Positions 29,040 to 59,846 of a stretch of DNA of 64,000 nucleotides are shown here, piece by piece. Position 1 is the first letter of the stretch. Each line of letters opens with the position of its first letter. The translations under genes and the position numbers were made by a program. This stretch comes from Stegostoma tigrinum (lineage: Eukaryota), in assembly GCF_030684315.1 (NCBI RefSeq), contig NC_081365.1, forward strand, positions 40,880,985 through 40,944,984, written 5' to 3'. Under the pieces are notes generated by a model that saw only the letters and a program-made list of their open reading frames with translations, was not told where the DNA came from and did no database searches.

Positions 29040-29660
29040 GAGGTGTGCAGCGTCACTGATGCCAGTCTTTAAACAATTCGATTCGACTCATTTCACTTGA
29101 TATCAAGAAACTGGATATTACAAGGCTGCGGGCCCTGACAACATTCCGAAAACAGTACTGAAGGGTTGTGCTCCAGAACTTGCTACCCCCTAGCCAATTG
29201 CAAAGCTAAAAACTGGCACCTACTTGACCGTGATAATAAAATGTGAGGCTGGATGAACACAGCAGGCCCAGCAGCATCTCAGGAGCACAAAAGTTGACGT
29301 TTCGGGCCTAGACCCTTCATCAGAGTGCTCCACAGATGCTGCTGGGCCTGCTGTGTTCGTCCAGCCTCACATTTTATTATCTTGGATTCTCTAGCATCTG
29401 CAGTTCCCATTATCACCTGCTTGACTGTGACAATTTGCGTAGGTGATTCCTGGCCACAAAGATAAAGACAAATCCAACATGATCAGTTACCACCCCAACA
29501 GGTCTACTCCCAAACATCAGCAAAGCAATGGAAGTGTTGTGGACAATACTATTAAGTGGCACTTGCAATGGACTAACCTGCTCACTGCTGCTCAGTTTGA
29601 ATTCCACCAGTTCTTAACTTCAATGACCATGTTCAAACATGACAAAAATTCAACAGATGA
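29040..29660 (+). mobile_element. L2/CR1-like LINE RT fragment, interrupted by a PLE foldback
   Basis: aaggctgcgggccctgacaacattccg (KAAGPDNIP), tgtgctccagaacttgctaccccc (CAPELATP), gctcagtttgaattc. Confidence 0.65.
29234..29413. mobile_element. PLE-derived asymmetric foldback insertion
   Basis: Inverted pLTR arms with the tail on the right arm. Imperfect 17-bp TSD CACCTACTTGACCGTGA / CACCTGCTTGACTGTGA (29217-29233, 29414-29430). Confidence 0.85.
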
Positions 29661-29880
29661 GGTGACTTCACAGCAGGATTTGCTATGCACTGTTAATATC
29701 TGTAACAAAGGTATGACATGTAATGTTCAGTTTTTGAGCTAAAGTGTGAGAATGGGATGTCATAACAAGTCATGCACCACCATTCCCCTTGCTGTATCAA
29801 GTCCCTACCAGGCAGTTAAGTGATAACCCAGCAGGCTTTTCATTGATCACTTTCTGGCTCAGCAATGTCACTCCCTAGAT

Positions 29881-30080
29881 AACAAAGTCTGAAGCTAGAT
29901 GAACACAGCAGGCCAAGCAGCATCTTAGGAGCACAAAAGCTGACATTTTGGGCCTAGACCCTTCTTCAGAGAGCCTGAAATGTCAGCTTTTGTGCTCTTA
30001 AGATGCTGCTTGGCCTGCTGTGTTCATCCAGCTTCACACTTTGTTATCTCGGATTCTCCAGCAGTTCCCATTATCTCTGA
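29881..30080. mobile_element. PLE-derived asymmetric foldback insertion
   Basis: Inverted arms; 13-bp TSD TCACTCCCTAGAT (29868-29880, 30081-30093). Confidence 0.9.
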
Positions 30081-31584
30081 TCACTCCCTAGATGAAGCTG
30101 TTTGTCAGTCAGAGGTCAGCAGCTGCTAAGGCCATGGCTGCTGGCTGAAAAAACAGTTAAGTGTAAAGATCAGGAGTAATCGGAAGGAGAGTGTGAGTAT
30201 TTGGGGGGTGGGGGTTGTGTTGCAGAATGGGTATTATAGGAAAAAGCATATCAGGAAGTTCAGAGGGAAAGACAGGGAGGTAGCTTTCAACGATCATCCC
30301 AGCCGTCTTCAGCCCCCATCACCCCAGATTGGACAGATCAGGCCCATCCCCAACCCAGCAGGCAAGCCCATCCATTTGACTAGTCAAGAAGAATGACACT
30401 TCTCACCTGCTGGGACCACACTTGATCAGGTGAGTGACAGGTCATTTAAAGATCTTAATTAAAGATGGGTTGAGGAAGGTTGATCATGGGCCTTCCTGCC
30501 CAGAACAATTTTTGAAGTGGCAGGAAGCAGGTGGCTGTCTCCCTGGTGCCAACATTACCAAGCATTCGCCAGAGGGGAAAATCCTGGCCACTGTGCCGAA
30601 ATTAGATCAAGTGAAATTGGGATAATATTCAGAACATTCTGGAGTATTAATTACAAGTTGATTTAAAAAGAAAAGTTTTTTATAAAGGTTAATTTTATAG
30701 GAACTGCCTTAATTTTGTAGCTATTCAAGTTTTTAGTATAGCCGATTTAAACAAATGCACTTTAAACCTTATTATATTTGTACTGCTGCAAACAACATCA
30801 TCTCATCGAAATGTTTCATGAAGTACCACACAAAAACTGCATTTGCTTATTTTTCCTGCAGTTGTTCAGACAGCAGTTGCAAATGACAATCCACATTGGC
30901 TAATGTTGAGCTGGATCATCATTACCTGTGCCCCAGTTTAAATATTAACCAATTTTGAATATCATGGATACTTCCAAGTGATAGCTTATAACATTGACTA
31001 GCCTGGCTACTACACCAAATGATTAATTGTTTCAAAAATATCTTTAGTTCAAGAAGAAATTTTTATAAAAGGAGGAAATTAGTAATTTCTGTGATTCAGA
31101 ATCCCCTTTACTGCCGGTAATACCAAAACAAGTGCTGTTGAGCTGTACTCTACATAAATGTAACACCTGCCACAGCTTACAATGTATTGTGATACACTAA
31201 TAACCTGTAATAAAGCATGGTGGACTAAAACTTCTATTCCATAATTTCCTGCTTGATAATCTTTCAAATTTGTCCCTCACTAATAGGAAAATATCAGATG
31301 GAAGAGAGCACTGTCATGGAAAGGCAAATCAATTTCCTGTCAGTCATGGTTAATTTCAGCTCTTTCCTTTAGCTATTTGCTCAGCCAACAAAACAAGATT
31401 CAGAAAAAGAACCCAATGAGGAAGTATAGCTAAAAATGGAAAGAGACAATTTAGAACAACATATTATATAATTATTGTACTTAAACAATTACACTTACAC
31501 TCTCACAGAAGAAAATTGTGTGTTTTCTATATCTGCTAGGATAATCATATCAGTTTGTAAAACTGCTTATTTTTGTTTTCATAG

Positions 31585-31739
31585 GAACATCGAGACCCAA
31601 ATGAAGCCTTCAATCTCTGGCTAAAGAAAAAACGGGAGCAGCAAATTAAAGAGCAGCAAATAGAAGCCATGAGAAAAAGGGAACAAGATTACAACTCAAA
31701 AGTTCACACAAGGGAAGATTCTGAAAAAGCCTTTAAGCA
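31585..31739 (+). CDS. CCDC181: CCDC181 coding exon 4
   Basis: EHRDPNEAFNLWLKKKREQQIKEQQIEAMRKREQDYNSKVHTREDSEKAFK; catAG/GTaag, ends phase 2. Confidence 0.9.
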
Positions 31740-31924
31740 GTAAGAAAAGTTTTTAATACTAAATTGTGTATCGCCTTTTATTCCATTTTGCAAGAAAGGA
31801 TTGGTGACTTAAACTGTGAACAAGTAAAAAGATTGGATGCCAAATTCTAGCAACAACTGTGGGATTGCTTGAGTTTATATTGACTGTATCAATTGATGGT
31901 CTTTGCAAATGTCTAAAGAACATG

Positions 31925-32550
31925 TTTTGCGAATAGAGTGATAGAGATGTACAGCACAGAAACAGATCCTTCAACCTAACTTGTCCATGCTGACCTGATA
32001 CACTAAATTAATCTAGTCCCATTTTCCAGCACTTGGCCCAATTCCTCCAAACCCTTCCCATTCATATACCCATCCAGATGCCTATTAAATGTTGTAGTAG
32101 TACCAGCACCCACCACTTCTCCTGGCAGTTCATTCCACACATGCATCACCCTCTCTGTGGAAAGAGTTGCCCCTTAGGTCCCTTTTAAATCTTTCCCATC
32201 TTACCCCAAACCTATGCCTTATATCTTGGGACTTCCCTACCCAGGGGAAAAGACCTTGACCATTCACCATATCCATGCTGCTCATGCCCTACGATGCTCC
32301 AGGGAAAATAACCCCAGTCCATTCAGCACCTTCCTTTAGGTCAAACCCTCCAACCCTGGCCACATCCTTGTCAATCTTTTCTAAACCCTTTCAGGTTTCA
32401 CCAACATCTTTCCTATAGCAGGGAGACCAGAATTGAACATAGTATTCCAAAATTCGTAACATGACCTCCCAACTCCTCTACCAAATGCACTGATTAATCA
32501 AGGCATGCTTACCAAACCTCATCTTCACTTCACAACTCAACTTTCAAGGA
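31925..32550 (-). mobile_element. CR1 LINE 3' fragment
   Basis: CR1 3' UTR reverse complement (atagag...gtacagcacagaaacagatccttc) and accagaattgaacatagtattcca (LEYYVQFW). Confidence 0.75.
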
Positions 32551-32707
32551 ACTTATACTTTATGATTTAATTAATTATAAAGATAAGAGGTGCTGAGAAT
32601 AGGTGTAAACTATTTGGTTTACAGTTATAATTGTTGAACTTTACTTTGCTTAATTCAGCAAGAGATTGATTCAGTCACTTTTCTTTCTTACTTCTAAATC
32701 ATTGCAG

Positions 32708-32876
32708 GTGGCTAAAACGAAAGAAAGCTGAGAAACGGGCAGAGCAATTGGCTGCAAAGGAGCGATGCAGGAAATTTCTGATGGAAGCTAGAAGAGTTAA
32801 AAGAATGCAAACTTTACTGTGCACCCTTAGTGAATCCAAATCATTTCAGTTTGACAATTATGGTTACAGGTTCTAG
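32708..32876 (+). CDS. CCDC181: CCDC181 last coding exon
   Basis: (Q)WLKRKKAEKRAEQLAAKERCRKFLMEARRVKRMQTLLCTLSESKSFQFDNYGYRF*; phase-compatible. Spliced CDS is 1521 nt (506 aa). AATAAA at 33102 and 33258. Confidence 0.9.
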
Positions 32877-34559
32877 AAAATCATGGTCATGAATTTTCTC
32901 GTTACATTTTGAATGCCTCATTGCAGAGTTCAAATGAGCAAAAATCTGCCAATGGTTTGCAAACCAGACTGTCAGTAGTATGAATACATCTGAAAAAAAT
33001 TTCAACAACACTATCTTTAATGTGTAATTTTTAACAAGCTCATACATCAGTGCTAACGTTTCAAAACCTTCTGAACATTCCACGACACATGATTAGATCG
33101 GAATAAATTATCTGCACAGTCTGTAAGTTGTTAATGTTTTTTCTATGCCCGTTAAAAGATTCTTTTAAGCATTTATGTTCTTTTTATTTTAATAGGATAG
33201 AGTAAACCAGTGTTAAGTAATATTGACACTTCCCACAAGTCATTGACAGTTATTAAAAATAAACAAATGATTGGTCTTGTTGCAATGAATGGTGTAGTTC
33301 TGTATGTGCAAGCAGTGAGTTAATTTTTACCTACTCATGTGAGCTAAACCTTTTAAACTTGGGGATATATTTTTTGACTATCAATCAATTATATCTACAG
33401 CTCATTTTACAAATACATTTATAAGTTCCTCTCCCCTTTGAATTTTTGCATTTGTTTTAGGTAAAAAAAGGGTGATACTCAACTCTGTTTTCTGGTAATG
33501 CCAGTGTAAGGAACTGTTAGTTGACAGTATTTAGAAGTACCCTATTGATTTGCTGCTTTCCATTTAGAAATTTCCTAACTTGCATTCAGTTCTTCCCACA
33601 ATAGCCTTGCTGAAATCAGGAGTTTGTCTTGCAGAATCCACTTCATAGGCACACATACCAATGTGTTTCCCCTTCCTCAGTTGTGTGTAGTTTCTTTGGG
33701 GTTTCTGCTCTTCTGATATAATTTTGAGTGAAACTTTATTTCTATCAAGATTACACTAGTAAGGTGTAGAAGCCTTGAGGAAGTTCCTAGAATAATGATT
33801 TTTTTCTCTCAGTACCTGTCTTCAGAGCTATTTACCAATAAGTCTGCCTCTTGAATGTTGTAGAATTCTTTCAATTTCTTTGAACAGTGGGTTATAATTG
33901 ACTCAGTTGTACCATATTTCATTTAGATTCTAAATAGACAAAATTTTAACAGTAGAAGACTAACCATTATGAGAATAATGCCCGGTGTAATTTACAGCTT
34001 TGCGGTAGTACTGAAAGCTGTTCAAAAACAACATTTATAACAAGCGTGGAATTTGACTGTTCACTTAAAGTTTCTGTCAAAGAGGAATTAATGATGTTTG
34101 GCCAGGGTTAATGATATGTCAGTGTTATCGCACTGCTACTGTATCGACATAAAATTCTGCATAAATGTTGTGGGTAAATGTCATGACTTTAGAAGGAAAA
34201 TATGTATCTTGTGGTCATAAAAATGTTTTCCAAAGATTCAACCAATGTTTGATATTCATAAATAGTGCACAAAGCTTTGTTATAAAAGAGTTGTGATTGT
34301 GTCATATAATGTCATCCATCCAATGTGATATTTAATTTTCTGTGATATTAAAAAATTCTTAATTTACCTATGGGCTTACTCTTTGTTTCCTGCAGTGGCT
34401 CTTTCTAACAAACAAACCTGAAATCATTTTGAGAAATTTTTTGAAATTTTTCGGTTTTTAAGTAGTAACAGAGAAATAGGCTGGTTGGCAGGTCTTGCTT
34501 GTCCCTGCCTTTCATCGGTCGAACTGAGAAGTGTAATGGAGAACCAATACCCATAGTCA

Positions 34560-37500
34560 GGTTTGCTTGAGCTATATGGGATGGTTTAAACTAGATTGGC
34601 AGGGGGTGGGAAACCAGATTTGTAATTCAGAGGGTGAGGTATTCAGCCTTCCAACAGACACAACAGGGAGAGAGGTTATTTATAAAGAAATGTGGTCAAT
34701 GGAATGTAATTGTGGACACAGATGGTTTGAGATGTGTACAATGCTAGAAGTGTCAGAAATAAGGCGGATGAACTTAGAGCATGGGTTGGTACTTGAAATT
34801 ATGATATTGTGGCCATTACAGAAACTTGGGTAACCAGGGACAGAAATGGTTGTTGGAAGTTCTGGGATTTGGATGCTTTAAAAGAAATAGGGAGGGTGGA
34901 AAAAGAGGCAGGTGAGTGGCACTGCTAATCAGGTCTAGTTTAGCAGCTACTGGAAGGCAGTTTGAGAATGATATGTCCACAGAGTCAGTTTGGGTTGAGG
35001 TCAGGAACAGGAAAGAAGTAGTCATTTTGGGGTTTTTTTACAGACCTCCTCCTAATAGTTACATGGATAGAACATTACAGCACAGTACAGGCCCTTTGGC
35101 CCTCGATGTTGTGCTGCCCTGTCATACTGATCTGAAGCCCATCTAACCTACACTATTCCATGCACGTCCATATGCTTGCCCAATGATGACTTAGATGTAC
35201 TTAAAGTTGGCGAATCTACTACCGTTGCAGGCAAAGCATTCCATTCCCTTACTACTCTGTGAGTAAAGACAGTTGCAGAGAAGTAGAGGAGTGTATTGGG
35301 AGGCAGATACTGGAAAAGTGCCGAAGTCACAGGGTTGTAGTCACAGGGTTGTAGTCATGGGTGACTTCAACTTTCCAAATATTGATTAGAAACATTTTAG
35401 TTGTAATAGTTTAGATGGAGCGGATCTTGTCCAGTGTGTTCAGGAATGATTCCTGACACAGTGTGTAGACAGACCGACATGAGGAGAAGCCACTTTGGAT
35501 TTGGTGTATGGCAATGAACCAGGCCAAGTGTTAGATCTGTTGGTCGGAGAACATTTTGGCATTAGCGATCATAACTCTGTTACTTTTACAATAGTCATGG
35601 AAAAGGATAGGTACATACAGCAGGGTAAGGTTTATAATTGGGGGAAAGGTAATTATAATTCTTTTAGGCAAGAACTGGGTAACGTAAAATGGGAACAGAT
35701 GCTGTCAGGAAGAGCACTATTAAATTGTGGAGATTGTTTAAGGAATGCATACTGCATGTGCTCGATATTTGTCCCTAGCAGGCAGGGAAAATGCTGTCGA
35801 GTGAGGGATCCTTGGTTCTCAAGAGATGTCAAACTGCTGGTTAAGAGGAAGAAGGATGCTTATATAAGTTTTAGGAAACAAGGAATGGAAAAGGTTATAG
35901 AGGGATTCAAGTTATCCAGGAAGGAGCTCAAGAAAGGGCTTAGGACAGCTGTAAGGGAGCACAAGAAAACCTTGGCAGATTGGATCAAGGAAAACTCCAA
36001 GGATTTTTACACATACGTGGGGAATAAGAGAATGACCAGAGAAAGGGTAGGGCCAATCAAGGATTGTAAAGGGAATTTGTGCAAGGAGCCTAAAAAGATA
36101 GGAAAGGTCCTGAATGAATATTTTTCTTTGGCATTCACAACTGAGTGGGACCTAGCTGTATTGGAGGACAGTGTGAAACAGGCTGGTAGGCTAGAGGAGG
36201 TTGATGTTAGTAAGGAAGATGCACTAGGAATTTTGAGGAACTTGAAGATAGATAAGTACCCCTGGCCTGATGGGATTTATCCGAGGACTCTAAGGGAAGA
36301 GATCAGAGGGCCTTTGGCAATGATCTTTTCGTCCTCACTGCCTATGGGTTTAGTGCCGGAAGATTGGAGAGAGGCAAACGTCATTCCCTTGTTCAAAAAA
36401 GGGATTAGGGATAACCCTGGAAATTACAGGCCAGTTAGTCTTATGTCAGTGGTGGGCAAATTATTGGAAAGGGCTCTGAGAGATAGGATTTAGATCACTT
36501 GGAAAAACACAGTTTGATTTTTGATAGCATGGATTTGTGAGGGGTAGATTATGCCTCACAAATCTTACTGAATTCTTTGAAGAGGTGACCAAACATATGC
36601 ATGAAGGTAGAGCAGTGGCTGTGGTATACATGGATTTAAGTAAGGCATTTGATAAGATTCCCCATGGTAGGCTCATGCAGAAGGTAAGGAGGCATGGGAT
36701 AGGGGGAAATATGGCAGATTGGATTCAGAATTGGCTGACCCTTAGAAGACAAAGGGTGGTAGTGGACGGAAAATATTCAACATGGTGCTCAGTTACGAAT
36801 GGTGTACCACAAGGATCTGTTCTAGGACCTCTTCTATTAGTGATTTTTGTAAATGATTTGGATGAAGGAGTAGAAGGTTGGATTAGTAAATTTGTGAACA
36901 ATATGAAGGTGGGTCAAGTTGTGGATAGTGCTGAGGGCTGTTCTGGATTACAAAGGGACATTGATAGGGTGCAGAGCTGGGCTGAGAAGTGTCAGATGGA
37001 ATTTAACCCTGAAAAGCATGAGGTGATTCATTTTGGAGGGACAAACTTGAAAACAGAATACAGGGTTAATGGGAAGATGCTTGGCAGTGTGGAGGAGCAG
37101 AGGGATCTTGGGGTTCATGTCCACAGTTCCCTGAAAGCTGCCACCCAGGTGGATAGAATTCTTAAGAAGTGTGTCAGCTTTCATTAATAGAGGAATTGAG
37201 TTCATGAGCTGTGAAGTTAAGCTGCAGCTGTACAAAATCCTGGTTTGGCCACATCTGGTGTTTTGTGTCCAGTTCTGGTCGCCTCATTCAGAAAGATGTG
37301 GAAGCTTTGGAAAAGGTGCAGAGAAGATTTACCAGGGTGTTGCCTGGAATGGAGGGAAGGTCTTACAAGGAAAGCTTGAGAGATCTAGGGCTTTTCTCTT
37401 TAGAATGACGAAGTACGAGAGGTGACTTGATAGAGGTGTACAAAATGATCAGAGGTATAGATGGAGTGGATCGCTAGAGACTTTTTCCTAGGGTGGAGGT

Positions 37501-37775
37501 AGCTATTACAAGGGGACATAGTTTTAAAATGAGTGGAGGTAGATACAGGGGACAGTTCAGAGGTAGGTTCTTTACTCGGAGAGTGGTCAGGGTGTGGGAT
37601 GCATTGCCGGAGAGGGTAGTCGAGTCAGCCTCGGGCATTTAAGCGGCTATTAGATCAGCATTTCGATGATAGTATAAAGTAGGGGTGGAGGTTAGATTTT
37701 AGGATTACGGTAAAAGTTCAGCATAACATCGTGGGCTGAACGGCCTGTACTGTGCTACACTGTTCTATGTTCTAT
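34560..37775 (+). mobile_element. CR1 LINE, near-complete ORF2 (APE endonuclease + RT), several stops and frameshifts
   Basis: [63 protein letters not shown]; 3' tail ttctatgttctat. Confidence 0.92.
35067..35268 (-). mobile_element. Short young CR1 3' end nested in the older CR1
   Basis: Near-identical to 47203-47405 (atagaacattacagcacagtacaggccc...tactactctgtgagtaaaga). Confidence 0.85.
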
Positions 37776-38789: not shown

Positions 38790-39013
38790 AGATAATGGGA
38801 ACTGCTGATGCTGGAGAATCCGAGGTAACAAAGAGTGAAGCTGGATGAACACAGCAGGCCAAGCAACATCTTAGGAGCACAAAAGCTGACGTTTCGAGCC
38901 TAGACCCTTCATCAGAAGGGTCTTTTCTGATGAAGGGTCTAGGCCCAAAACGTCAGCTTTTGTGCTCCTAAGATGCTGCTTGGCCTGCTGTGCTCATCAG
39001 CTCCACACTTTGT
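38790..39013. mobile_element. PLE-derived asymmetric foldback insertion with hammerhead motifs on both strands
   Basis: Inverted arms meeting at tcatcagaagggtcttttctgatga; 15-bp TSD AATCTGTAAGAACAG (38775-38789, 39014-39028). Confidence 0.9.
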
Positions 39014-47196: not shown

Positions 47197-48717
47197 ACAT
47201 ACATAGAACATAACAGCACAGTACAGGCCCTTCGGCCCTCGAGGTTGTGCCAACCTGTCATATTGATCTCAAGCCCATCTAACCTACACTATTCCATGTA
47301 CATCCACATGCTCATCCAATGACGACTTAAATGCACCTAAAGTTGGCGAATCTACAACCATTGCAGGCAAAGCGTCCCATTCTGTTACTACTCTCTGAGT
47401 AAAGAAACTACCCCTGACATCTGTTCTATATCTTTCACCCCTCAATTTAAAGCTATGCCCTCTCGTGCTCGCCGTCACCATCCTAGGAAAAAGACTCTCC
47501 CTATCCACCCTATCTAACCCTCTGATTATTTTATATTTTTCAATTAAGTCACCTCTCAACCTCCTTCTCTCTAATGAAAATAGCCTCAAGTCCCTCAGCC
47601 TTTCCTCGTAAGACCTTCCCTCCATACCAGGCAACATCCTAGTAAATCTCCTCTGCACCCTTTCCAAAGCTTCCACGTCCTTCTTATAATGCGGTGACCA
47701 GAACTGTACACAATACTCCAAGTGCGGCCGCACCAGAGTTTTGTACAGCTGCAGCATAACCTCTTGGTTCCAGAACTTGATCCCTCTATTAATAAAAGCT
47801 AAAACACTGTATGCCTTTTTAACAGTCCTGTCAACCTGGGTGGCAACTTTCAATGATCTGTGTACATGGACACCGAGATCTCTCTGCTCATCTACACTAC
47901 TAAGAATCTTACCATTAGCCCTGTACTTTGCCTTCTGGTTACTCCTACCAAAGTGCATCACCTCACACTTGTCTGCATTAAACTCCATTTGCCACCTCTC
48001 AGCCCAGCTCTGCAGCTTATCGGTGATAATGGGAACTGCAGATGCTGGAGAATCCAAGATAATAAAGTGTGAAGCTGGATGAACACAGCAGGCCAAGCAG
48101 CATATCAGGAGCACAAAAGCTTTTGTGCTCCTGATATGCTGCTTGGCCTGCTGTGTTCATCCAGCTTCACACTTTATTATCTGCAGCTTATCTATGTCTC
48201 TCTGCAACCTACAGCATCCTTCGTCACTATCCACAACTCCACCGACCTTAGTGTCGTCTGCAAATTTACTAACCCATCCTTCTACGCCCTCATCCAGGTC
48301 ATTTATAAAAATGACAAACAGCAGTGGACCCAACACCGACCCTTGCGGTACACCACTAGTAACTGGTCTCCAGGATGAACATTTGCCATCAACTACCACC
48401 CTCTGTCTTCTTTCAGCAAGCCAATTTCTGATCCAAACTGCTATATCTCCCACAATTCCATTCCTCCGCATTTTGTACAATAGCCTACTGTGGGGAACCT
48501 TATCGAACGCCTTGCTGAAATCCATATACACCACATCGACCGGTTTACTCTCATCTACCTGTTTGGTCACCTTCTCAAAGAACTCAATAAGGTTTGTGAG
48601 GCACAACCTACCCTTCACAAAACCGTGCTGACGATCCCTAACCAATTTATTCTTTTCTAGATGATGATAAATCCTATTTCCTTATAATCTTTTCCAAACA
48701 CTTTACCAACAACTGAG
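47197..48717 (-). mobile_element. Young 5'-truncated CR1 LINE inserted in the Gypsy RNase H region
   Basis: Minus ORFs [33 protein letters not shown] and QRDLGVHVH..LEYCVQFW; 8-bp TSD GTAATTTT (47189-47196, 48718-48725). Confidence 0.93.
48022..48179. mobile_element. PLE-derived foldback centred on AAAAGCTTTT, nested in CR1
   Basis: Perfect palindrome of ~60 bp per arm plus tail; 13-bp TSD TCTGCAGCTTATC (48009-48021, 48180-48192). Confidence 0.92.
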
Positions 48718-51700
48718 GTAATTTTGTAATAACGGACCACATACCCCTGTTAGGTCTGCTTAAAGAGGGCAAGTCAGTGCTGCCTATAACTCCAGGCCGA
48801 CTTCAGCAGTGGGGTCTAATACTAGGTAAGTATAATTACAAATTCAAACATCGTTTTAGGAGGCCAAGTAATAAATGCAGATACATTGAGCAGCCTCCTG
48901 CTGGCAGATATACAATCGATGGTACAACCACTGGAAATGTCCATAATGTTTTCAAATTTTCTGGATACAATTCCAGTCACAGCTGACAATATCAGACTTT
49001 GCAGACATAGTAAGATCTAATTCTGGTAAAACTGAAACAGCTGGTGATGATGGCAGAACTAAAGGGTCAGAATTGAAGCCTTTTTGGACCCAACAAGACC
49101 AGATCACAATATAGGATGACATATTATTACAGGAAGTAAGAGTGATTGTCCGAAGCTAAAGTACTATCTGAACTTCACCAGGGATATCCGGGGGTTCCAA
49201 AATGAAAATGTCAGTGAAAAGTTATGTCTGGTGGCCCAGGCTAGATACAGACACAGCTGCATTGGTGGGGCAGCACCCAGACAAAGATTACCACCAACAT
49301 CTTCCACACACTCATGGGAAGGGCAGTGTAAACCCTGGACTTGGTTACACTATGCAGGTCCTTTCACAGGCTCAATGTTCTTAGTCATTGTGGACGCCTT
49401 GTCAAACTGGTTGAAGTGCACAAAGTTTATTCATCAAACACACAGACAGTGATAGAAAAACTGCACACATATTTTGCAACACACAAATCCCGGACATATT
49501 GGTCACAGATAACAGGCCATCGTTTACTGGCAGGGATTTAAGGATATTTCATAAAGGTGAATGGTATTCACCATATAAGGACAGCTCCACACCATTCAAC
49601 GGTTTGGCAGAAATAGCAGCCCAAACTTAAAAGGCAGGTTTAAAAAAACAGCCAACAGCTTCACTGAATACAAACTGTCCCAGGGATAGCTCTAGTAGAG
49701 TTGCTAACTGGTAGGAGACTACATACTAGGTTAAATTTGATCTTTCCAGACCTAGTAGGGGTGGGGGATGCGTAAGGAACACCAATACCAGATACAAAAC
49801 TCCACTAAGCAAGAGAGACATCATCCTTCAGGGAATAAATTTTGATGGGCAAACCCCAAAAATGGCCCTTCATGGGTATGACACATGGTTGAGGTCAGGT
49901 CCAGTGACGAATAAAGTTTGGGTTAGTGTGACAGTCCTGAACAAACACAAAGACAACATGAAAGCTGCAAACTCATCCATGGTGTGGTAGCAAAACATGC
50001 CCAGCTCAACAGCCTTTCCAACCGTTCTGGAACTCACGGGTTCTCCCTCCCGATCAAAGTTTTAAGATACTCAGAATCTGAGATGAATATGGTGGATTTC
50101 ACCACCTCAGCGCCTTTGCTGCCTCGTGAAGTGGATGAAATTCTTCCAGGATGCTGCAGGCGCAACAGGCAAGTTACTGCTCTTTACATACTGCCTGTCC
50201 CAGAGGCAGAGTTGGAGGAACTTGACCCAGTGCTAAAACATCCCACGAAGAGCTACGAAAGGCTTATATCCTCAGACTCAGGCAGGGAGGGATGCAGCAA
50301 TTGTACGGAGGTTGTCCAGGTGGAGATCACAGAAAATAAGTTCCCTGGTTGGGGCTATCTGCCTGGTCCAATCAGGGAGCCCTGGCTGACAGCTAAGAAC
50401 AAGACAGTCAGACATTCTGTTCACTCTAAGAGCTGGCTTAGACAGCTTGATCAGCCTCAAGGACTCTCCATGTTAAAGAGAGGGCAATGTGGTGATGGGA
50501 TGCTGACATCTGTGGAATTATTTCAGCTAATATCCCAAGATTGAGTGAATTGAAACCAAAATATGCCAAGATGCAGCTGTATTGTCTAAATGCAACTAAT
50601 ATGCCCAATCTGTAATTTTTCTGCGTAAGAAAATACATATACCAACCTGCCAATTACTGATATTTATATTGATGAAACAAATCCACCACTCCAGCTTATC
50701 CGAAATCTCACTTTTCACAATGGTCCACTGAATAAGACTCATTTACTTGGTACAAATCATGAAATTGTATTAATTACTACAGCCAATTTACTGAATTTGC
50801 CTTGAAGGTTACCACACGATTGGTGTTATTTGGGTCAGTATTTTAAGACTTTGAGCAACAAATTTTGAATGAACACCAAATTAGCGGGCCTAAACAACCC
50901 TTCTAGATTGCAAAAGGTACTCTCTCTTATTTCCTTGCTCTTTCACTACATCCTTTTACATTCTTCCTTTGCGAGTGCATGTGAAAATACTTTTTAAATT
51001 GTGATATGTCTCTGCTACAATTTTTATTTAAATAATTGCATGTTTTAATAACCTGTATGAAAAGAATTCTATATATCTTGATATGTCTGTTAATCTCGAG
51101 TCTTTGAAAACTCAAGTCTTTATGCTCTTTTAGCCTGTAATTCAACATTCTATTCAACTGAAAAGACTAAAGAATGGATGGACAAACATTTTACAGTTGT
51201 ATCAAAAGCAAAACGGCATATTTCTTTATAAATTGAATACTCTGACTTGTACAATACTTCATAGGTGACACAATATAGACCACACTGATCTAACTGGATA
51301 TTTTGTTAACACTTGATCAGATATAGTCATTTTCAACTCTGCACCACATTTAAGAAGATAGAAAATTCCGCTTTTCCACTCATACATATAAATACACATT
51401 AAAACACAAAAAAAAACAAGTGGCAGTATAAATACATAATCATTGTCATAACTGGGCGAAACCTGAGGTAAAGATTCAGGCAGTTTATGAGAGAGAATAG
51501 TGATGAATACATCACTGTGCTTCTTAGACCGATATATCGTATTGCTTATATTTTTAAGAAAAATGTGCATATGTGCAAATAAGAAAATCCTTTAAAACAT
51601 AATGATTGCATCAAAGTATTGCCAGTTTTAAAGTCAACAATAACAGCAGTAACAGTGCACAACCTGTTCATGTCACTGTAACTTTTTCATTAGAAATAGG

Positions 51701-51886
51701 TCATAACACTATTAACTCTCCTGTGCATTGGTTGCAACAATTAAATGTGATATTTTCATATCTAGTATATGGGTGGAAACGTCCTATGCTCTTTTTATTA
51801 GAGAGAAGCGATGATGGTGAAGTATCACAAAATGGTACATCAGTCATTCCTTTGCTGCACAGTGTAGGATCCAACATGTTTAAAAC
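51701..51886 (-). CDS. BLZF1: BLZF1/Golgin-45 last coding exon
   Basis: VLNMLDPTLCSKG...KKSIGRFHPYTRYENITFNCCNQCTGELIVL* matches the Golgin-45 C-terminus; acceptor ttgcAG. Confidence 0.95.
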   Translation of the reverse strand, partial: VLNMLDPTLCSKGMTDVPFCDTSPSSLLSNKKSIGRFHPYTRYENITFNCCNQCTGELIVL

Positions 51887-52047
51887 CTGCAAATAAAAGA
51901 AAAAGAATCTGTGCTAAGTCAGCTCTTGGTAGTACTTATTTGAAGCAGTAATGATTGTAAAATAACATTCAGTTTATTCTAATTGTCAAAGCACAAGGGT
52001 ACATGAACTTGCAGTTTGCAGTGGTAAATAAACAAATTATTATCGTA

Positions 52048-52268
52048 GATAATGGGAACTGCAGATGCTGGAGATTCCAAGATAATAAAATGTGAGGCTG
52101 GATGAACACAGCAGGCCAAGCAGCATCTCAGGAGCACAAAAGCTGACGTTTCGGGCCTAGACCCTTCATCAGAGCCTCTCTGATGAAAGGTCTAGGCCCG
52201 AAACGTCAGCTTTTGTGCTCCTGAGATGCTGCTTGGCCTGCTGTGTTCATCCAGCCTCACATTTTATT
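52048..52268. mobile_element. PLE-derived asymmetric foldback insertion with hammerhead motifs on both strands
   Basis: ~90-bp near-perfect arms meeting at tcatcagagcctctctgatga; 14-bp TSD AAATTATTATCGTA (52034-52047, 52269-52282). Confidence 0.92.
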
Positions 52269-52824
52269 AAATTATTATCGTAATTTGTTTCCAGAAGAAA
52301 CTATATATTTGACTCAAAGACTAAATACTTGGTTTAATTAACAATTGACTAGTTCACTATCTAGCTTGATAACTGTACTAAACTTAACTGATTTATACTT
52401 TTATTATGAATCCACTATTGGACAATTTGTAAAATGTTTTGCCATATGCAAACTCATGGAGATGTTGGTTTTACATTTGTTGATCAATTTTGAACCATAT
52501 CTTTCACAAGCGGCCTAACAGGTCTTACAACTGATTCTAAAGAAAAGGTCCTACATTCAAAATGTCAACTCTGCTTTCTCTGCTGCCAGACCCACTGAGT
52601 TTCTTCATAAGTTTCTGTGCTTTTTTTTAGAAAAAGAGAATCAGCATAAGTGGGTCGTGTTGAAGTTGGCAAACTGTATCTGGTTTAACTAACAGGAAGC
52701 ATTGTTGGGATATGGAGTATTTACAATCTATATTAATGATTTTAATGAAGGGATCAATTGTATTGTATCATTAGCCTATTTAGCTACAGATATGTGCTAG
52801 AGAGCACATAGTGAGGAGGACAGA

Positions 52825-53058
52825 GATAACAAGGTGTAGAGCTGGATGAACACAGCAGGCCAAGCAGCATCACAGGGGCAGGAAAGCTGATGTTTCCGGC
52901 CTAGACCCTTCTTCAGAAATACAGAAATTTCTGAAGAAGGGTCTACGCCCGAAACTTCAGCTTTCCTGCTCCTATGATGCTGCTTGGCCTGCTGTGTTCA
53001 TCCAGCTCTACACCTTGTTATCTCTGATTCTCCAGCATGTGCAGTTCCTACTATCTAG
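52825..53058. mobile_element. PLE-derived asymmetric foldback insertion (CUGAAGA-core subfamily)
   Basis: Arms meet at cttcagaaatacagaaatttctgaag; 14-bp TSD GTGAGGAGGACAGA (52811-52824, 53059-53072). Confidence 0.9.
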
Positions 53059-53371
53059 GTGAGGAGGACAGATGTGTCTGTACTAAGATATATTAAAAGT
53101 TAAGTGAGTAGGTAAAAAGCTGGCAGATGGGAGCATTATGTGGGAAAATGTGAGGTTCTCCCTGTTCTTTGGCAGGAAGAACAGAGGAGCAGAATAATAT
53201 TTAAGTGGAGACATTACAGAATTCTCCAGCATAGTGAGATCTGGTTCTCATTATACATGAATTACAAAAAGATAGCTTGCAGGGAAAGAAGGTAATCAGA
53301 AAAACAAACTGAAAGACAGTCTTGATTGAAAGAGGGAGTGGAGTAGAAGAGCAGGAAAGAGTCTTGTTTTT

Positions 53372-53735
53372 TCTTTTCATTCATTCATTCACAGGACGAG
53401 GGCGTTGCTGACTAGATAGCATTTACTGCCCATACCTAATTGCCCAGAGAACAGTTTAGAGTCAGCCACATTGATGTGGGTCTAGAGTCACATGTAGGCC
53501 AAACCAGGTAAGGATGGCAGTTTCCTTCCTTAAAGGGCATTAGTGAACCAGATGGGTTTTTACGACAACTGACAATGGATTCATGGTCATCATTAGATTC
53601 TTAATTCCAGATATTTTATTGAATTCAAATTCCACCATCTGCCCTGGTGGGATTTGAACCTAGGTCCCCAGAACATTATCTGGATCTCTGGATTAACAGT
53701 CCAGCAATAATACCACTAGGCCATTGCCTTCCCCT
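53372..53735 (-). mobile_element. Deu-domain SINE (SacSINE1-like), full length
   Basis: Reverse-complement match to 16191-16548, with a (ttca)n tail at the left end. Confidence 0.78.
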
Positions 53736-54969
53736 GTAGTACTACCATCCAGAGCACTGATGGGACTGCACCTTGAGTACTATGTATACTTTTGACTCTT
53801 TACTTAGGAGAGCATTGGAAGCTGTTTGGAAATGATTCATAAAGGTTGATTCCTGGAATGAAGTGGTTGTGTTAAAAAATTACAGATTTCTCACTTAAGG
53901 CAAAGACAAAGACAAAGACAAAGAAACTTTTCCCTTAAAAGGATCATTCATCTTTTGAATTCTCTCCTACAAAGAACAGTGGAGGCTGGGTGATTATCCA
54001 AAACTGCTATTTAGAGATTTGATTTGACAAGCTGGGGAGATGGGGTTATGAATGACACACAGGAAAGTGGTGTTAAGATTACAATCAGATCAGCCAAGAT
54101 CTTCCTAAATGGTACAACAGGCTTAATTCTAATGCTCTTATTTCTCAAAATCTTATAACGTTACATTCCGTACGCTTATTATCTGACAGAAAAAAATCCC
54201 AAGTGTTTGTGAATGGCAATATTTTGATTTTCATATCACAATTAATTTAAATAATTAGTTCATTTTATTCCTAAGCCTATACCATTTCAAATAGAATTCG
54301 ATAGTTCGAATGTGGTGCTAAATCCAGTAAGCATTGAAGTCAGTCTTATTCACATAATTAAGTATTGTACAAAACAGGTATTGAATAGACTGTAAATTAA
54401 ACATTAATAATTAACATTATTAATATGGTGGGAGGAAACTCAAATGCATTCACCTAATTGTTTGACAAGTGATAGTCAAACAACTCAACTTTAACAATGA
54501 CTTCTGAAGGGGTAAAATATTGGTCTAGTTCCTCAACATACAAATTGAGTGACAAATCAGACATGTTGGACCCTAAGGACAGTTGCAGCACAAGAGTGTC
54601 AATTTACACGACCACTACTGTATCCATTTCAAAGTTAATGTTAGCACACAGGAGTAGGCATTTAATATTGCTCCTTTTGACACTGTCTAACTTAAATGTT
54701 GTTAAATTATTAGGATCCAAAATCTTAATGGACATCACGAGATCCATATTAACATTAACAGTACTGCAATAACTCCACCCAACCTCCAGTATTTCTCTCT
54801 CATCTTCTCGTCCAACCCCGAACTGTTCTTTCCCTTCCATCCTCCTTACCTATGTCCCCATCCTCCTCCATGCCTACCCTCCCCATTCTGATCCCTACGC
54901 TTCTCCTCCATCCGTCCCTCCTGCTCCCCTTACCCCTCCATTCTCCTTCCTTGTAGAATTGTACAGTAC

Positions 54970-55189
54970 CTTTTCAGCCATCTTTTCAGCAGGTGTGTTG
55001 CAGAATTCAACCTGTTGGTTGGTCTTTTGTATATTACTTGTGCTCAGTCTTCCAAGAAGTTGAGAATTAATAGCCTCTGCTAACTTAAGATTGACAGAAG
55101 CAAGTTCTACAGTGGTATGCGGTTGTGCATTAGGATAATAAGTTTGTTGTCGGCCCCATTGCAGAGATACTAAGAGCTCCTTGAGGAAT
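54970..55189 (-). CDS. BLZF1: BLZF1 coding exon 5
   Basis: FLKELLVSLQWGRQQTYYPNAQPHTTVELA...VEFCNTPAEKMAEK; cacAG/GTactg. Confidence 0.93.
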
Positions 55190-56694
55190 CTGTGAAGAAT
55201 AATGAAAACGAATGATTTCACAGCTGGTCCTGCACAGAACTAATCTATACAAGGTGTATGCTTTATTCTAGGTAACAATGATCTTGTCTTTCTGAGCATA
55301 ATATTTGTAGTGCAATTGTCACTAGAAAGATCTGATCTTCTTGGAGGTGCACCTAATTATTACAGGAGGGTGACTGCTGTTACCTTAGTTTACTACCATT
55401 TATGAACGCTTCAGAGATCATAAATTAGTTTCAAGTATTTGAAGCATCATTACAAATAAACATAGTTGCATTCTAAACAGTATTTTCCTCGATTAACATT
55501 CTTTAACTAATAATCAGTGTTGAAAGTAGATGAAGACCAAAAATGGTCTGTCATTTTTCCGGGTCAAGGAATCATGTAATTGTAGCATTTGTTACGACCT
55601 GTAATGAATGCTTCTCGGCCATTTCAACCAGGCAGAAATATTTGACGTTAAACAGACAGAATCCTTAGTTTTTGGTTTATTTACCTCCCTTTAGATGTTG
55701 CACCTAAAGTGATGTTAGCATTTCAACATTTGATATTAAATGATGTATTACAGGATGAAGATTGTACAAACAATAAAACATGACCTTGTTGATTATTACA
55801 TGCAAAGCGAACCAAAAGACAAAGGCAGGACTTCAATGACTACTTTTCAACGAACCCCCTTTTAACTTTGCTTCAAAGGCAATATAGGTGGGCAACAATA
55901 CTCTAATTCTGTTAATAAATATGGGAATATATTCAAAATTAACATGACTCTACACCCCAGGAAAATCACTACTATATCAGCTTGGTAATCTTCAGGATAT
56001 AACATTTCCTTATGAAGATGAATATTAAAATGTATTTTTAAGAGGTATTTTGCAAAAATGTGATTTTATACACTTGTGCATTTTGGTCAATCTCGCCATG
56101 TTTCCTGATGACAGGAGACTCAGTGGAGCCCTGTGTTCTCCCTTCATGCACAAACTGTTATCAGCACTTCCTGGCCAACTGTACCTCCAACCATGCCATA
56201 TACACACACACCCTTAGGATCCCCCCTCCAAATTCACGCACTCCGTATTCCCAACAGTTTCATCGAATTTCACAGTGACCCCACAAGCACATTCATGACC
56301 AAGCTAACATGACTCAAAACGAGCACCAATTCACCACGATCAGTTGAAACATACGATTTGCTACTGCCTCCTTAAAGAAGATTCTGATGTTGAACCTTTT
56401 TTTCTCTTTTTGCATGGGACAATTATTGCAATACTTTAAGGCTAATCACAATACAACATTTCATTAGATTTTTAACATTTTCATTCATGGCATATGGAAA
56501 TCACTAGCTAGGCAAGTACATCACTTGGATATACTCATACGCACGGTTCTAAATCCTCTATATCATTGTCCATGAGCAACTTCTGTAATGTGCATATCCA
56601 CAGAATAGGTGCATTGCTGTAACAGAAATCGGACCAGGGCAGAAGAAAGAGAACGGATGTGAGGTTTTGGGGGGGTGGGGGGGTTGTGGGGGAT

Positions 56695-56860
56695 GAGTCA
56701 GAGACAGAGAGAGAGAGACAGCAGGCGAGAAAGCAGACACAATGGAAGAAAGATAGACCGAGCGTGCAAATGGACATAAGGGCAGGGGACGAGAAAGAGA
56801 GAGAGCGAGAGAGAGAGCGCGCGAGAGAGAGAGAGAAAGAAAGAAAGATGTGGGGAAGGG
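56695..56860. repeat. GA-rich simple repeat
   Basis: (GA)n runs with GC interruptions. Confidence 0.8.
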
Positions 56861-58098
56861 GTAAAGTGAGAGGACAGATAGAGGCAACAGAGGGAACCTA
56901 GGAGCCAGAATGCCCTCTCTCTCTCCCTCCACCTTCATCGTTTTTCTTCCCGGAATCTGTGATCGTCTACATCTCAATCTTCCATCTCCAACCCTGGTCC
57001 CAACTTCTCCCTCTCCTCGTCCTAAAACCCGATATCTCCAATAATCACCCGTCCCACCCAATCACCTCTCCCAAATTCTTCCCCTGAAGCTGTTTGTATG
57101 AGCGTGTATGTGCTGCTGTTAGCAAATACAGTATGTAGAAAAAGTGTTTTGTGTCTTGTGAAATTTTTTATGCACTTAAGTGCTCTACAATTTATTTTGA
57201 TGGAATGACTCTAAACTGCCCCATGGGAATTAGGGATGGGCAATAAATGCTAACTTAGCCAGTGACACCCACATTTGGTGAATGTGTATAAAAAAAATTA
57301 TCAACATCCATCCTTTCCCTTCCAGTACTCAAGTTTAAACATCTCACTCACTTTTGACTGACAAAATCTATAAATACTAACGGACAGTGCAGATCCTACC
57401 TCACTAACTTTGGGACTTTCCATTTCTAACATATTTTCATTTACATCAACTGGAGCCTCTGTTTCCAAATCTAGAGTGGGGGAAGAAAAAGGCTGCTGCA
57501 TCAGACTTATGAACCATCACCCATGGGCCTGATGAACCTTGAGGAGATGTGATCCACTGCTCCTCCCTTTCCCAAGTCCTCTGGGCACTTGTTTGGCTGC
57601 TTGGATGCAACGGTGGCCAAGAGGAAGAGGGGTCATTTTAAACAGAAGTGTGGAATTTTTTTTTCATTTCTTATTTTGGTATAACTTCTAGGCCCAGATT
57701 TTGTAGGAAGAACATTAGTAAGACAGTCAGTGTTCATCACAGTGAAAAGGGAAAACCAGACAGCAACATCTGGGTTCTGCACACGCACAAATGAAAGTTT
57801 TGAAGGTAAGAAATTTGTGTTCAGTTGCCCTGTTCTTTGCTGCACTGGTACCTTACTGATAGACATATATGAAAGCTGAGGTACTTACCCAGTAGATACT
57901 CTCCTGGTATGATATAAAACATCAGGGCCTATCAATTCAGTAAGTGCAAGTCTAAACAGAATGGCTTGATAAGTTACATTGCGACTATTAGTTTAGGACC
58001 GGTCTTAATCAAAGTTTGGTGCTGACAGCAGTTTAAATGTTGACAGGGTATTGCGTAATAGATAAAATGTGATATGACTGAAATGGATGGAAACATAC

Positions 58099-58227
58099 TC
58101 ATGGGATTCAACCATATCTTGACGAAATTGCTCACGCTCACTGAGAAGATCTTGTATTGCACTCTGGGTTTCTCGGACATGACGCTGCAGCGATGTTCTA
58201 ATGTGTGCTAATTCCTCTGTCATCACT
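58099..58227 (-). CDS. BLZF1: BLZF1 coding exon 4
   Basis: VMTEELAHIRTSLQRHVRETQSAIQDLLSEREQFRQDMVESH; tgcAG/GTatgt, phase 2-2. Confidence 0.93.
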
Positions 58228-58614
58228 CTGCATGGAAAGAAGATTAAAATAAATGAAATCTGGGTAATTACTGTTTAGAATTTTTTTACAAAATGACAAA
58301 GTGTGTCTACAGTTATAAAAATGAAAAGGCACTTAAGAAAGCCATTAACATGGGCCAAAAATCACATTTTACATTATCTATACGGCACATGTTAAAGGAA
58401 TTTAAACTGCAATATATATTTTTGGGTATAAGATGATATTCTAATCATTTAAATTTCTCTTGGCAACTAAAACCAGGGTATATAAAAGTCTAGGATGTAC
58501 GAATTTATCTGATTTAACTATTTGTGTTCTTTAATTATGATTAGATAGAGTATGTAGCATAGATCTAGTCCGTGCCAGCATTTTTGATCAAATGAAGCCT
58601 TCTACTATCTCTGA

Positions 58615-58950
58615 GCTGGAGAACTGAATCCAGTTTTGGGCACCACACCTTAGGAAGGATGTACAGGCATTAGAAAGGGTGTGGAATAGATTCACAAGTA
58701 TCAGTCCAGAGATGAGGACTTCAATAATACAGAAAAATTACTCCAGATTATTTTTCTTGCAAGTTGAAAGCTTTGCTGAGGCACCAAACGTGGACTGAAG
58801 TCAAGGGTTACTGTGGGGAAGCCAGTGGAGAACAAACTAAAAATGGAGTTGAGACCACAACCAGATCAACAATGATCTAACTGAGTGGTGGCACAGGCTT
58901 GAAACACCGAATGGCCTATTCGTGTTCTTAAGTTCTATATTCCTATGATA
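58615..58950 (+). mobile_element. Old CR1 3' fragment
   Basis: cagttttgggcaccacaccttaggaaggatgta (QFWAPHLRKDV) and tail gaatggcctattcgtgttc. Confidence 0.65.
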
Positions 58951-59632
58951 GAGGCTTAAGGCAGGAAATTGGACCTTTAACTGAAAAGGGCAGATTTATA
59001 TGGGCACAAAGAAAATACAGAGGATTGACATTAGGTAAATAACAGGTCCAGCATAGACATGACAGGCCAAATGGTTTTCGCCTGTAATCATTCCATCATC
59101 GAACTTTTATCATTACAGCCCTGTGCTCTGTTCTCTCTAATAATAGTTAATTCTTAAATGTAACTATACAATTCATCTTGACTGCTCCTTGTTGTAGCAT
59201 GTTTCACACACAGTAATTGAGTTTCTTCTGAATCCCATTTTAATTTCTGGAGTCTCAGGCTGCACATCCTAGTGGATATTTTTGTGCCACTTTCAGTGCT
59301 CCTATTTGTTTCTATATAATATGGCAACCTGAACTACACACAAGTGTGGTCAAGGTTAACATATTTTTTGTTTTTCAATTCTATCTAGAAATAAATCAAG
59401 TGTTTCATTTACTTTTGCTGTGGTCTTATTGTCACAGCTTTTATATGACAAGTGTCATCATACCTCTAGATCCATTTGACTACCACAACTGCCACCCCCA
59501 CCACGATCCCCACCAATTGGATTATTATTTCCAAGTTATATATTACCTAATTTCCTCACCAAAATGTTAATACATGCATTTTTCAGTCTTGAGGCTCATG
59601 CCAAATAAAAGCACAAATCCTTAAATTTGTTA

Positions 59633-59846
59633 GAGATAATGGGAACTGCAGATGCTGCAGAATCCAAGATAATAAAGTGTGAAGCTGGATGAACACAGCA
59701 GGTCAAGCAGCATCTCAGGAGCACAAAAGCTGATGTTTCGGGCCTAGACCCTTCATCAGAGGGTGGGTCTAGGCCCGAAACGTCAGTTTTTGTGCTCCTG
59801 AGATGCTGCTTGGCCTGCTGTGTTCATCCAGCTTCACACCGTGTTC
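59633..59846. mobile_element. PLE-derived asymmetric foldback insertion
   Basis: Arms meet at tcatcagagggt|gggtctagg; 15-bp TSD TCCTTAAATTTGTTA (59618-59632, 59847-59861). Confidence 0.9.

Follow-up and report, generated by a model that had tools for sequence, protein, structure and literature searches.

The window analysed here is a 64,000-nt stretch of the Stegostoma tigrinum genome (NC_081365.1). Our analysis showed that it carries a 5′-truncated Penelope-like element (PLE) at 6649..8442 on the + strand, comprising a reverse transcriptase (RT) domain, a CxxxxCxxC linker, an endonuclease (EN) domain of the GIY-YIG type, a 3′ UTR and a hammerhead motif. Its end is untailed, at site 1, and a 13-bp target site duplication (TSD) flanks it (6636-6648 / 8443-8455). 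Longer relatives of this parent element were found, and elements of the parent type have open frames of up to 1184 aa with RT and, at the C-terminus, GIY-YIG in a single ORF. The domain matches (RVT_1, E=8e-5; GIY-YIG, E=0.003) are both under the Pfam curated cut-offs. The translations contain C-x4-C-x2-C between RT and EN, in agreement with the motif CX2-5CxxC of the Neptune clade, which occurs in Nematis too (PMC8557442). A pattern search, used in place of a DNA search with the 126 bases after the tail that gave no matches, revealed 2148 exact junctions at which the tail runs on into the ORF's beginning, as in a partial tandem with a pLTR.

The minimal type I hammerhead of PLEs has a CUGANGA/GAAA core, an extra base after position 9, a palindromic 15.2-16.2 and a short helix I (PMC4209133). 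Read by eye against this description, in sequence only, the parent element has a predicted hammerhead of this type at 8351..8382 (+), with CUGAUGA at 8353-8359, a GUC ending at 8380 and a helix I of 2 bp. Rfam gave no hammerhead match at gathering score, and folding of -31..+190 was without signal (z=1.38). Arm positions are counted below from the hammerhead GUC, the base that follows it being +1.

The initial annotation had listed seven foldback insertions further along the window. All seven are present and start where it placed them, with lengths of 158-234 bp, and each has, as described there, one arm reaching the tail end (~+97) and another reaching the first ATTATC (~+64) or its vicinity. 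Perfect TSDs of 13-15 bp were recovered by script in six of the seven. None of the following is assigned to a strand. In the first (29234..29413) the left arm is untailed and extends to -29, and the right arm is tailed and begins at ~+8; its 17-bp TSD, read by eye, has two mismatches, and the script recovered a 12-bp core of it. The second (29881..30080) joins an untailed arm to -31 with a tailed arm from -11 (TSD 13 bp), and the third (38790..39013) a tailed arm to ~-33 with an untailed arm from -28 (TSD 15 bp). At 48022..48179, inside an older RT-coding element, the arms meet +1/+1 through a 4-bp palindrome (TSD 13 bp); this is the only copy in the window that turns at the cut site. The insertion at 52048..52268 has a blunt centre between a tailed arm to -29 and an untailed arm from -32 (TSD 14 bp). 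That at 52825..53058 belongs to an older subfamily, and both of its arms extend to ~-28 around a 12-nt centre (TSD 14 bp). The last (59633..59846) has a tailed arm to ~-30/-35 and an untailed arm from -19 (TSD 15 bp). Lone arms, all on the + strand, were also found: a tailed one at 18576..18828 reaching -150, an untailed one at 23504..24150 reaching -613, and a short untailed one at 14728..14801 with a 13-bp TSD. For three inserts, contigs from runs X3 and X5 reach across unique flanking sequence into the outer ends of the insert, each contig with 0-2 differences; these contigs stop short of the centres and may derive from the source sample.

We then used a position-blind sample of 24 blocks of 50 kb together with the window (~1.26 Mb). 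There were 76 head-to-head pairs against no tail-to-tail neighbours in 1.264 Mb, which excludes chance. Among the 43 blind TSD-bounded pairs with a module identity of at least 88%, 41 combined a tailed with an untailed arm; none had two tails, none lacked both, and two had a short end that could not be classed. Without filters the same combination was found in 71 of the 76 pairs, and the rule extends to kilobase-long pairs. TSDs are 12-17 bp, with outer ends at +92..+108 for the tailed and +51..+67 for the untailed arm. The target flanks are twofold symmetric: of 93 flanks, 58 have A at -8 and 61 have T on the mirror side, against a background of 29%. Short foldbacks numbered 33-52 in 1.2 Mb, that is one per 23-36 kb and not one per ~9 kb as first estimated, and the genome is estimated to hold ~0.9-1.4e5 copies.

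These results support the PLE origin of the foldbacks. The insertions are real and PLE-derived, but to call them a family, as had been done, is too strong, since kilobase-long pairs obey the same rule of one tail per pair and the layout has been published. EN+ PLEs are known to have a head-to-head inverted pLTR and an optional 30-40 bp 'tail' (PMC3846280, PMC8557442, PMC2377424). As in that layout, an inverted 5′-truncated copy adjoins the 5′ end, the tail is at one end, and the TSD surrounds the whole unit; unlike in the published cases, the foldback arms are often only 60-130 nt, pairing is strict, the stop is sharp and looks capped, and templates are sometimes mixed. The seven insertions are the short end of the published PLE inverted-copy-plus-tail insertion, and neither a separate family nor a MITE.

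The high copy number, the recurrence of some centres and the presence of one jump in 75 copies would suit a MITE-like or SINE-like foldback family amplified whole from a few masters, and the foldbacks resemble MITEs in being short, palindromic, numerous and flanked by TSDs. However, their TSDs are long and variable, their outer ends unequal and ragged, and their origin is in a retroelement. Neither fixed termini with a fixed short TSD nor a clonal internal structure was found, and the tail rule continues into kilobase pairs, so that amplification of this kind is refuted for the sample and altogether hardly credible, in line with the initial annotation. Its statement that every centre differs holds for the seven in the window; outside it identical centres recur, one of them in 6 of 50 places (the first 50 listed, counted by eye). 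Nevertheless, the 36 blind short pairs fall into 35 junction classes, and copies with the same centre have TSDs of unequal length and do not share their outer ends, which supports the proposal that each insertion was made anew. Foldbacks of this kind are likely mislabelled as MITEs.

The foldbacks also share with non-LTR retrozymes (bioRxiv 10.64898/2026.07.22.740005; PMC7229834; PMC4209133) their derivation from PLE ends, their hammerhead and their lack of coding capacity. Unlike retrozymes, which consist of direct tandem units each with a hammerhead, they are inverted, lack the post-tail sequence and are likely immobile. Related arrays elsewhere do consist of such direct units, and tandem deletion derivatives of 270-570 bp fit the retrozyme class. 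The foldback stubs are likely dead on arrival: every deletion derivative has kept at least 76 nt beyond its tail, and the stubs lack this sequence.

Regarding the origin of the second arm, the initial annotation had left a choice between priming from both target ends and a single cDNA that snaps back. In the latter case one cDNA would fold back or self-prime and copy itself, the endonuclease trimming the new arm at site 1; self-priming on an antisense template has been proposed (PMC3846280). Many centres do lie on short palindromes, and the arm-against-arm comparison suggested in that annotation showed that arms mostly share subfamily letters (mismatch 0.104 within pairs, 0.326 when shuffled). 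Both arms had the same haplotype in 52 of 55 pairs, and a private junction was common to both arms in four of five deletion-derivative pairs; this likeness is compatible with a single RNA or with gene conversion at a later time no less than with two RNAs. In the other three of the 55 pairs the two main haplotypes are mixed, clearly so in two (L245, L283), and in L224 one 15-bp TSD encloses an ordinary arm to -845 together with an array of a 362-bp deletion derivative. Moreover, of 41 pairs, 24 have the longer arm on the untailed side, where the excess can be as much as ~1.2 kb, 12 have it on the tailed side and 5 have equal arms; tail-only arms occur opposite full untailed arms (B171, B161), and many centres are blunt and loop-free. 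A copied arm cannot outgrow its template or lack what its partner has, and snap-back is therefore contradicted as a general route and quite improbable. The self-priming proposal in the literature is likewise contradicted by strict pairing, the sharp stop and mixed templates. The data support priming at either end of the target.

The turn was said to lie always at the hammerhead. Junctions do cluster around the motif, but of 51 TSD-bounded tail/no-tail pairs, 10 have both arms turning 144-1681 nt upstream of the cut site and 8 have both turning downstream of it. Stops accumulate upstream of the cut site, at -27..-34, where the rate per nucleotide is 0.0495 (44 of 111 arms at risk). This zone maps to the 5′ edge of the parent hammerhead, and single arms that have a TSD to themselves stop in it as well. 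For the cut site (+3..-2) the rate is 0.0097, one fifth of this and equal to that at +20..+4. These rates, with the extra C that marks the upstream stop (see below), speak against the claim that the arms turn at an RNA end made by hammerhead cleavage. Such an end would explain the clustering and the arms ending exactly at +1, which are 6 of 170 blind arms and include both arms of 48022..48179. Position +1, however, is part of a 4-bp palindrome, as are +10/+11 and +16/+17, which are used equally. Of 39 short pairs only two include an arm ending at +1, an RNA end left by cleavage would carry no cap, and an Anolis element inserts even with its hammerhead mutated (PMC11167929). As a general explanation cleavage is thus very improbable, although cut RNA may have been used for some insertions, given the six exact ends.

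The stop at -27..-34 is accompanied by a single extra base. The untemplated base was C in 74 of 75 same-strand jumps and in 35 of 44 joins to the partner arm, although the latter could also come from a -31 partner that carries a small deletion. Among the first 100 of 179 listed, read by eye, the C follows stops at -29 (19), -30 (3) and -31 (34) alike. Against a cap mark, C is the next base in only 10 of 22 arms joined to non-element DNA, read by eye with a pattern that excluded G. In 20 of the 75 that were fetched, the jumps affect one arm only, occur in several subfamilies, have up to three repeats and never lie upstream of -33. We considered a master carrying a 43-nt duplication as the origin of the jump junctions and rejected it. 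A splice acceptor at -31, like the one at helix I in D. virilis (PMC4209133), was also rejected: no AG precedes the position, and 100 strings had no common upstream exon. RTs are able to add a C without a cap. The extra C is likely the mark of a copied RNA cap, and untemplated 5′ G in L1 and SVA has been attributed to cap copying (PMC3287187).

Alternatively, with two primers likewise, the -27..-34 stop could be a roadblock on a longer RNA (entry of a C-rich tract, a bound protein or a cDNA G-quadruplex) and not an RNA end. The stop coincides with entry into the C-run, falls at its first C in subfamilies that differ in their upstream letters, and a few fillers resemble slipped copies of the run. 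By contrast, the two arms of a pair tend to be both short or both long (29 short-short, 10 long-long and 2 mixed among 41; p=6e-8), and none of 11 second-pass arms stops at -27..-34 (by eye; p=0.007), although such arms form a processive subset. A physical end would also suit the single extra C and the jumps that start repeatedly from the stop, and we regard the roadblock as unlikely.

The explanation that we favour, and consider fairly probable from the sequences in hand, is that two target-primed reverse transcriptions, one per staggered nick, both ran off the capped 5′ end of uncut element RNA ~30 bases upstream of the cut site. A dimeric PLE protein would nick both strands ~14-15 bp apart; synthesis from one 3′-OH would begin at the end of the tail (+97..+108), and from its counterpart at site 1 (+58..+67). 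On an mRNA starting at -29..-32 both cDNAs would be only ~95-130 nt, with the cap copied by the RT as one C. The D. virilis start site lies in the pLTR (PMC2377424). Their ends would join bluntly or via 1-6 bp of microhomology from the element's own palindromes, and joining would trim the arms back into or past the hammerhead. The two cDNAs may come from one RNA or from two of the same locus, at least sometimes from two. A second template pool without an end at -31, such as read-through tandems or circles, would give kilobase-long pairs by the same route. Long copies ending at -31 on a second pass were considered, and this idea failed. A point against the model is that in long copies 5′ ends do not accumulate at -31, as they would with a plain mRNA dimer.

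L1 twin priming likewise starts a cDNA from each 3′ end of the target, and microhomology joins the two. L1 arms come from non-overlapping parts, one starting on poly(A), whereas the arms of a foldback begin at two fixed internal sites of one module, which both of them copy, and nearly every pair has overlapping arms; only a few tail-only arms would suit the L1 type. Poseidon of Anolis carolinensis is also comparable. In vitro, both strands are nicked and extended and two RT starts bound the tail; a dimer is predicted, the RNA is needed to ~55 nt past the second site, and an element with a dead hammerhead still inserts (PMC11167929). The foldbacks agree in the two strands, the two tail-bounding start sites and the dispensable hammerhead cut. 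They differ in showing one site per strand, where PMC11167929 saw no strand difference in start, and belong to a different clade. The main text of that study does not treat inverted pairs.

Tentatively, PLE integration might consist of an obligate double target-priming in which a dimer allots to either DNA strand its own RNA start site. The hammerhead would then sort templates: uncut capped mRNA would yield abortive 'strong-stop' foldbacks, and long, more-than-unit and rolling insertions would derive from mRNA that had been circularised after cleavage by its two hammerhead copies. If so, the ~1e5 foldbacks would be a fossil map of where transcription of the element starts and of failed replication.

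The origin of the inverted ends and the one-sided tail of PLEs was left open in PMC3846280, PMC8557442 and PMC11167929, and the Stegostoma genome holds enough events to choose among the proposals. Self-priming is disfavoured by our results, which also tie the two start sites known from in vitro work to one DNA strand each. A start site, a cap mark and two pools of template are predicted from them. Within the non-subscription literature we found no description of the pairing rule, of such short foldbacks or of a cap mark in PLEs. The foldbacks would also supply hairpins of DNA and RNA in large number: ~1e5 near-perfect ones of 100-280 bp, in some cases apparently within introns, might contribute to RNA editing, to small RNAs or to instability through cruciforms. 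The predicted RNA folds of the seven foldbacks in the window range from -116 to -193 kcal/mol.

The foldbacks are real. On re-reading of the window sequence, the seven inserts (29234-29413, 29881-30080, 38790-39013, 48022-48179, 52048-52268, 52825-53058 and 59633-59846), their TSDs and the one-sided tail were as claimed in the initial annotation. The two arms of each insert are mutually inverted copies of the 3′ end of a Penelope-like element (PLE), whose 5′-truncated parent copy lies at 6649-8442. Positions were numbered with +1 as the first base 3′ of the hammerhead GUC, which places the C of CUGAUGA at −27, the end of site 1 (the first ATTATC) at +64 and the end of the tail at +97; two natural copies, L101 and L213, served as coordinate references. 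For a blind sample of the 3.2 Gb assembly, whose repeats presumably resemble those of sharks, we took 50 kb blocks from 20 contigs, 24 in all and each at a round-number position; with the window added, the sample comes to 1.264 Mb. This sample contained 76 head-to-head pairs versus no tail-to-tail neighbours. The 1.2 Mb outside the window held 52 short pairs, 33 of them with a TSD found, so the density is one short foldback per 23-36 kb, or by extrapolation about 0.9-1.4 × 10^5 per genome; the earlier figure of about one per 9 kb reflected a window that is enriched relative to the blind blocks. With a single exact pattern, 7850 foldbacks whose arms both extend past −26 were counted.

The parent family is very large: 141 aa of the parent RT gave 73,803 first-look candidates, and a 17-base hammerhead-edge pattern, combined with one further A/T filter, had 106,661 exact matches. 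RT, a C-x4-C-x2-C linker and GIY-YIG were present in twenty long-frame copies (picked from 150 scored). Exact matches to the tail continuing into the ORF start numbered 2148; the next unit therefore begins with the tail, as in other PLEs.

Strict selection (module identity of at least 88%, TSD of at least 10 bp) kept 43 blind pairs and excluded the other 33 of 76. A tailed arm faced an untailed arm in 41 of the 43, the other two having an unclassed short end, and the TSD was 12-17 bp long in 42. The tailed arm was on the left in 22 pairs; in 19 it was the right-hand one. With both filters lifted, tail and no tail were combined in 71 of the 76 pairs, and two more joined them after TSD subtraction; one had two tails (a tail-only arm), and two had none, both without TSD. 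Outer ends spread across +92 to +108 and +51 to +67, with a target match of mostly 0-3 bp. The rule is also true of kilobase arms, and the foldbacks are therefore the short end of a continuum. One exception was the long head-to-head pair at locus L103, in which neither end has a tail and mirror-image flanks take the place of a TSD. Tail-only inverted arms opposite a full arm were seen in blind blocks B171 (1662-1789), B161 (21003) and B061 (46474), the outcome to be expected when two primers share an RNA and one of them is blocked at site 1. At five loci (L204, L205, L208, L216 and L220), tailed arms have their 3′ end about 18-24 nt beyond the tail, a putative minor third start zone.

The view that the foldbacks are not an amplifying MITE was upheld. 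The 36 blind short pairs fell into 35 junction classes, and same-centre copies (7 groups) differed in TSD length and outer ends; the MITE reading was rejected. The statement that the centre differs in every copy is right for the seven window copies, but across the genome identical centres turn up repeatedly, since arm ends concentrate at few positions.

The initial annotation had left two origins side by side, namely two cDNAs primed from both target ends, or one cDNA that snaps back and copies itself; self-priming is proposed for PLE inverted ends in PMC3846280. Arms of one pair usually share subfamily letters, as snap-back would have it: in 99 pairs from all loci gathered, mates were closer (mismatch 0.104) than shuffled arms (0.326), a likeness that age-matching and gene conversion could have partly raised. 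However, the untailed arm was the longer in 24 of the 41 strict pairs (tailed in 12, equal in 5), and snap-back is disfavoured because a self-copied arm cannot exceed its template in length and copying an untailed arm cannot add a tail. Two templates are also combined where both main haplotypes are mixed within a pair (3 of 55, clearly so in two) and at locus L224, where a single TSD surrounds an ordinary arm joined to an array of deletion derivatives (internally deleted PLE units). In four other deletion-derivative pairs, a private deletion was common to both arms. Arm lengths and mixed templates favour the two-cDNA origin over snap-back. TSD flanks were A-rich on the left in 58 of 93 and T-rich at mirror positions in 61 of 93, versus a 29% background, a symmetry that would fit a dimeric nickase.

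The 170 blind arms had a per-nt stop rate of 0.0495 at −27 to −34 and of about 0.0009 between −51 and −1000. It was 0.0097 both at +20 to +4 and at +3 to −2, and the pile coincides with the hammerhead motif's 5′ edge, about 30 nt from the cut site, which argues against the claimed delimitation of the RNA by ribozyme cleavage. In 22 of 39 short TSD-bounded pairs an arm ends in the −27 to −34 zone, in two an arm ends at the cut site, and in 8 both arms end downstream of the cut. Joins were mostly blunt where the two arms both end in the zone; arms trimmed within the module were joined mostly via 1-6 bp overlaps. Arm lengths were coupled (29 short-short, 10 long-long and 2 mixed pairs; p = 6e-8), an indication of two template pools. 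Of the second-pass arms, which run beyond one full unit, none of 11 reaching −27 stopped there (by eye, in the first 30 of 2148 tail-ORF loci, 26 distinct places; p = 0.007 versus 44 of 111). Second passes often finish inside the tail or just beyond. Many unit-length copies, among them L101, L106, L203, L207, L209, L214 and L221, start within the tail or shortly before it (+46 to +88), as though the RT had halted on return to its own start. In block B066 (12286), CCCTAA telomere-like repeats fill the centre between the arms.

Of 86 true stops at −31, read by eye in the first 100 of 10,647 listed with G excluded and 14 read-through variants set aside, 64 were followed by C, though the partner arm could have supplied many of the Cs. 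Where a C would be templated by neither side, it was found at 35 of 44 and 74 of 75 junctions in two tests. It followed stops at −29 and −30 as well as at −31. Against a cap mark, C was present in only 10 of 22 joins to non-element DNA. In the 20 that were inspected of the 75 jump junctions, the jump was confined to one arm, involved several subfamilies, was repeated for as many as three extra rounds and at no point extended upstream of −33. At L312, L313, L319 and L323, a unit of 41-48 nt recurs two to four times within one arm; the unit (about −31 to +10 or +18, plus one G) is nearly exactly a minimal hammerhead, and a G at +10 or +18 is where the jumps land. The stop lies in sequence similar to a pyrimidine-rich TCT or initiator motif. 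The untemplated C is likely the mark of a copied RNA cap. PMC3287187 attributes an untemplated 5′ G of L1 and SVA insertions to cap copying.

Judged from these sequences, the element RNA likely begins at the hammerhead 5′ edge; this would explain why the hammerhead lies at the foldback centre, and the stubs would then derive from uncut RNA. We propose that a dimer would nick both target strands, one target end priming at the tail end and the other at site 1, and that both cDNAs would extend until they either fail or reach the 5′ end of the RNA, before their 3′ ends are joined. A capped mRNA starting at −29 to −32 would yield short stubs, and read-through or circular RNA long pairs and arrays.

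In all 13 deletion derivatives inspected, 76 nt or more of the sequence following the tail is retained. Foldbacks retain no more than about 11 nt of it and are therefore likely not copyable again. Deletion derivatives of 270-570 bp are arrayed in tandem at L224 (G000:C1:49656422-49659448), L217, L218 and L230; each unit comprises the 3′ end, hammerhead, tail and 76-285 nt from the ORF start, and a single private junction recurs along the array. Evenly spaced tail-ORF matches near C1:104860946, 110519784 and 135852211 are of the same type. These arrays look like PLE-derived retrozymes copied over several rounds. Those at L217, L218 and L224 all end 38-40 nt past the tail, where a protein footprint may have its edge.

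The overall layout, an inverted copy with a one-sided tail, is already known. PMC4209133 proposes circles and describes Schistosoma hammerhead pairs on opposite strands, 100-700 bp apart; further PLE and retrozyme work was also compared (PMC11167929, PMC8557442, PMC2377424, PMC7229834, bioRxiv 10.64898/2026.07.22.740005). Our search of openly accessible papers gave no account of the pairing rule, stop zone or cap mark. The importance lies in new testable points on PLE replication, not in the foldbacks as a family.

Other features of the window were host exons at 60114-60683 (minus strand, Pfam PF08227 match), 62051-62524 (minus) and 25619-26806 (plus), which presumably resemble BLZF1/golgin-45 and CCDC181. 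Older RT-coding elements with RVT_1 matches, which we assume to be CR1-like, lie at 35483-37626 and 47284-48681, the latter carrying the inserted 48022 foldback. One contig of the sequence run X1 (from another organism, RNA being a guess) joins 51500-51884 to 54968-55189, and the foldbacks at 52048 and 52825 are therefore probably in an intron.
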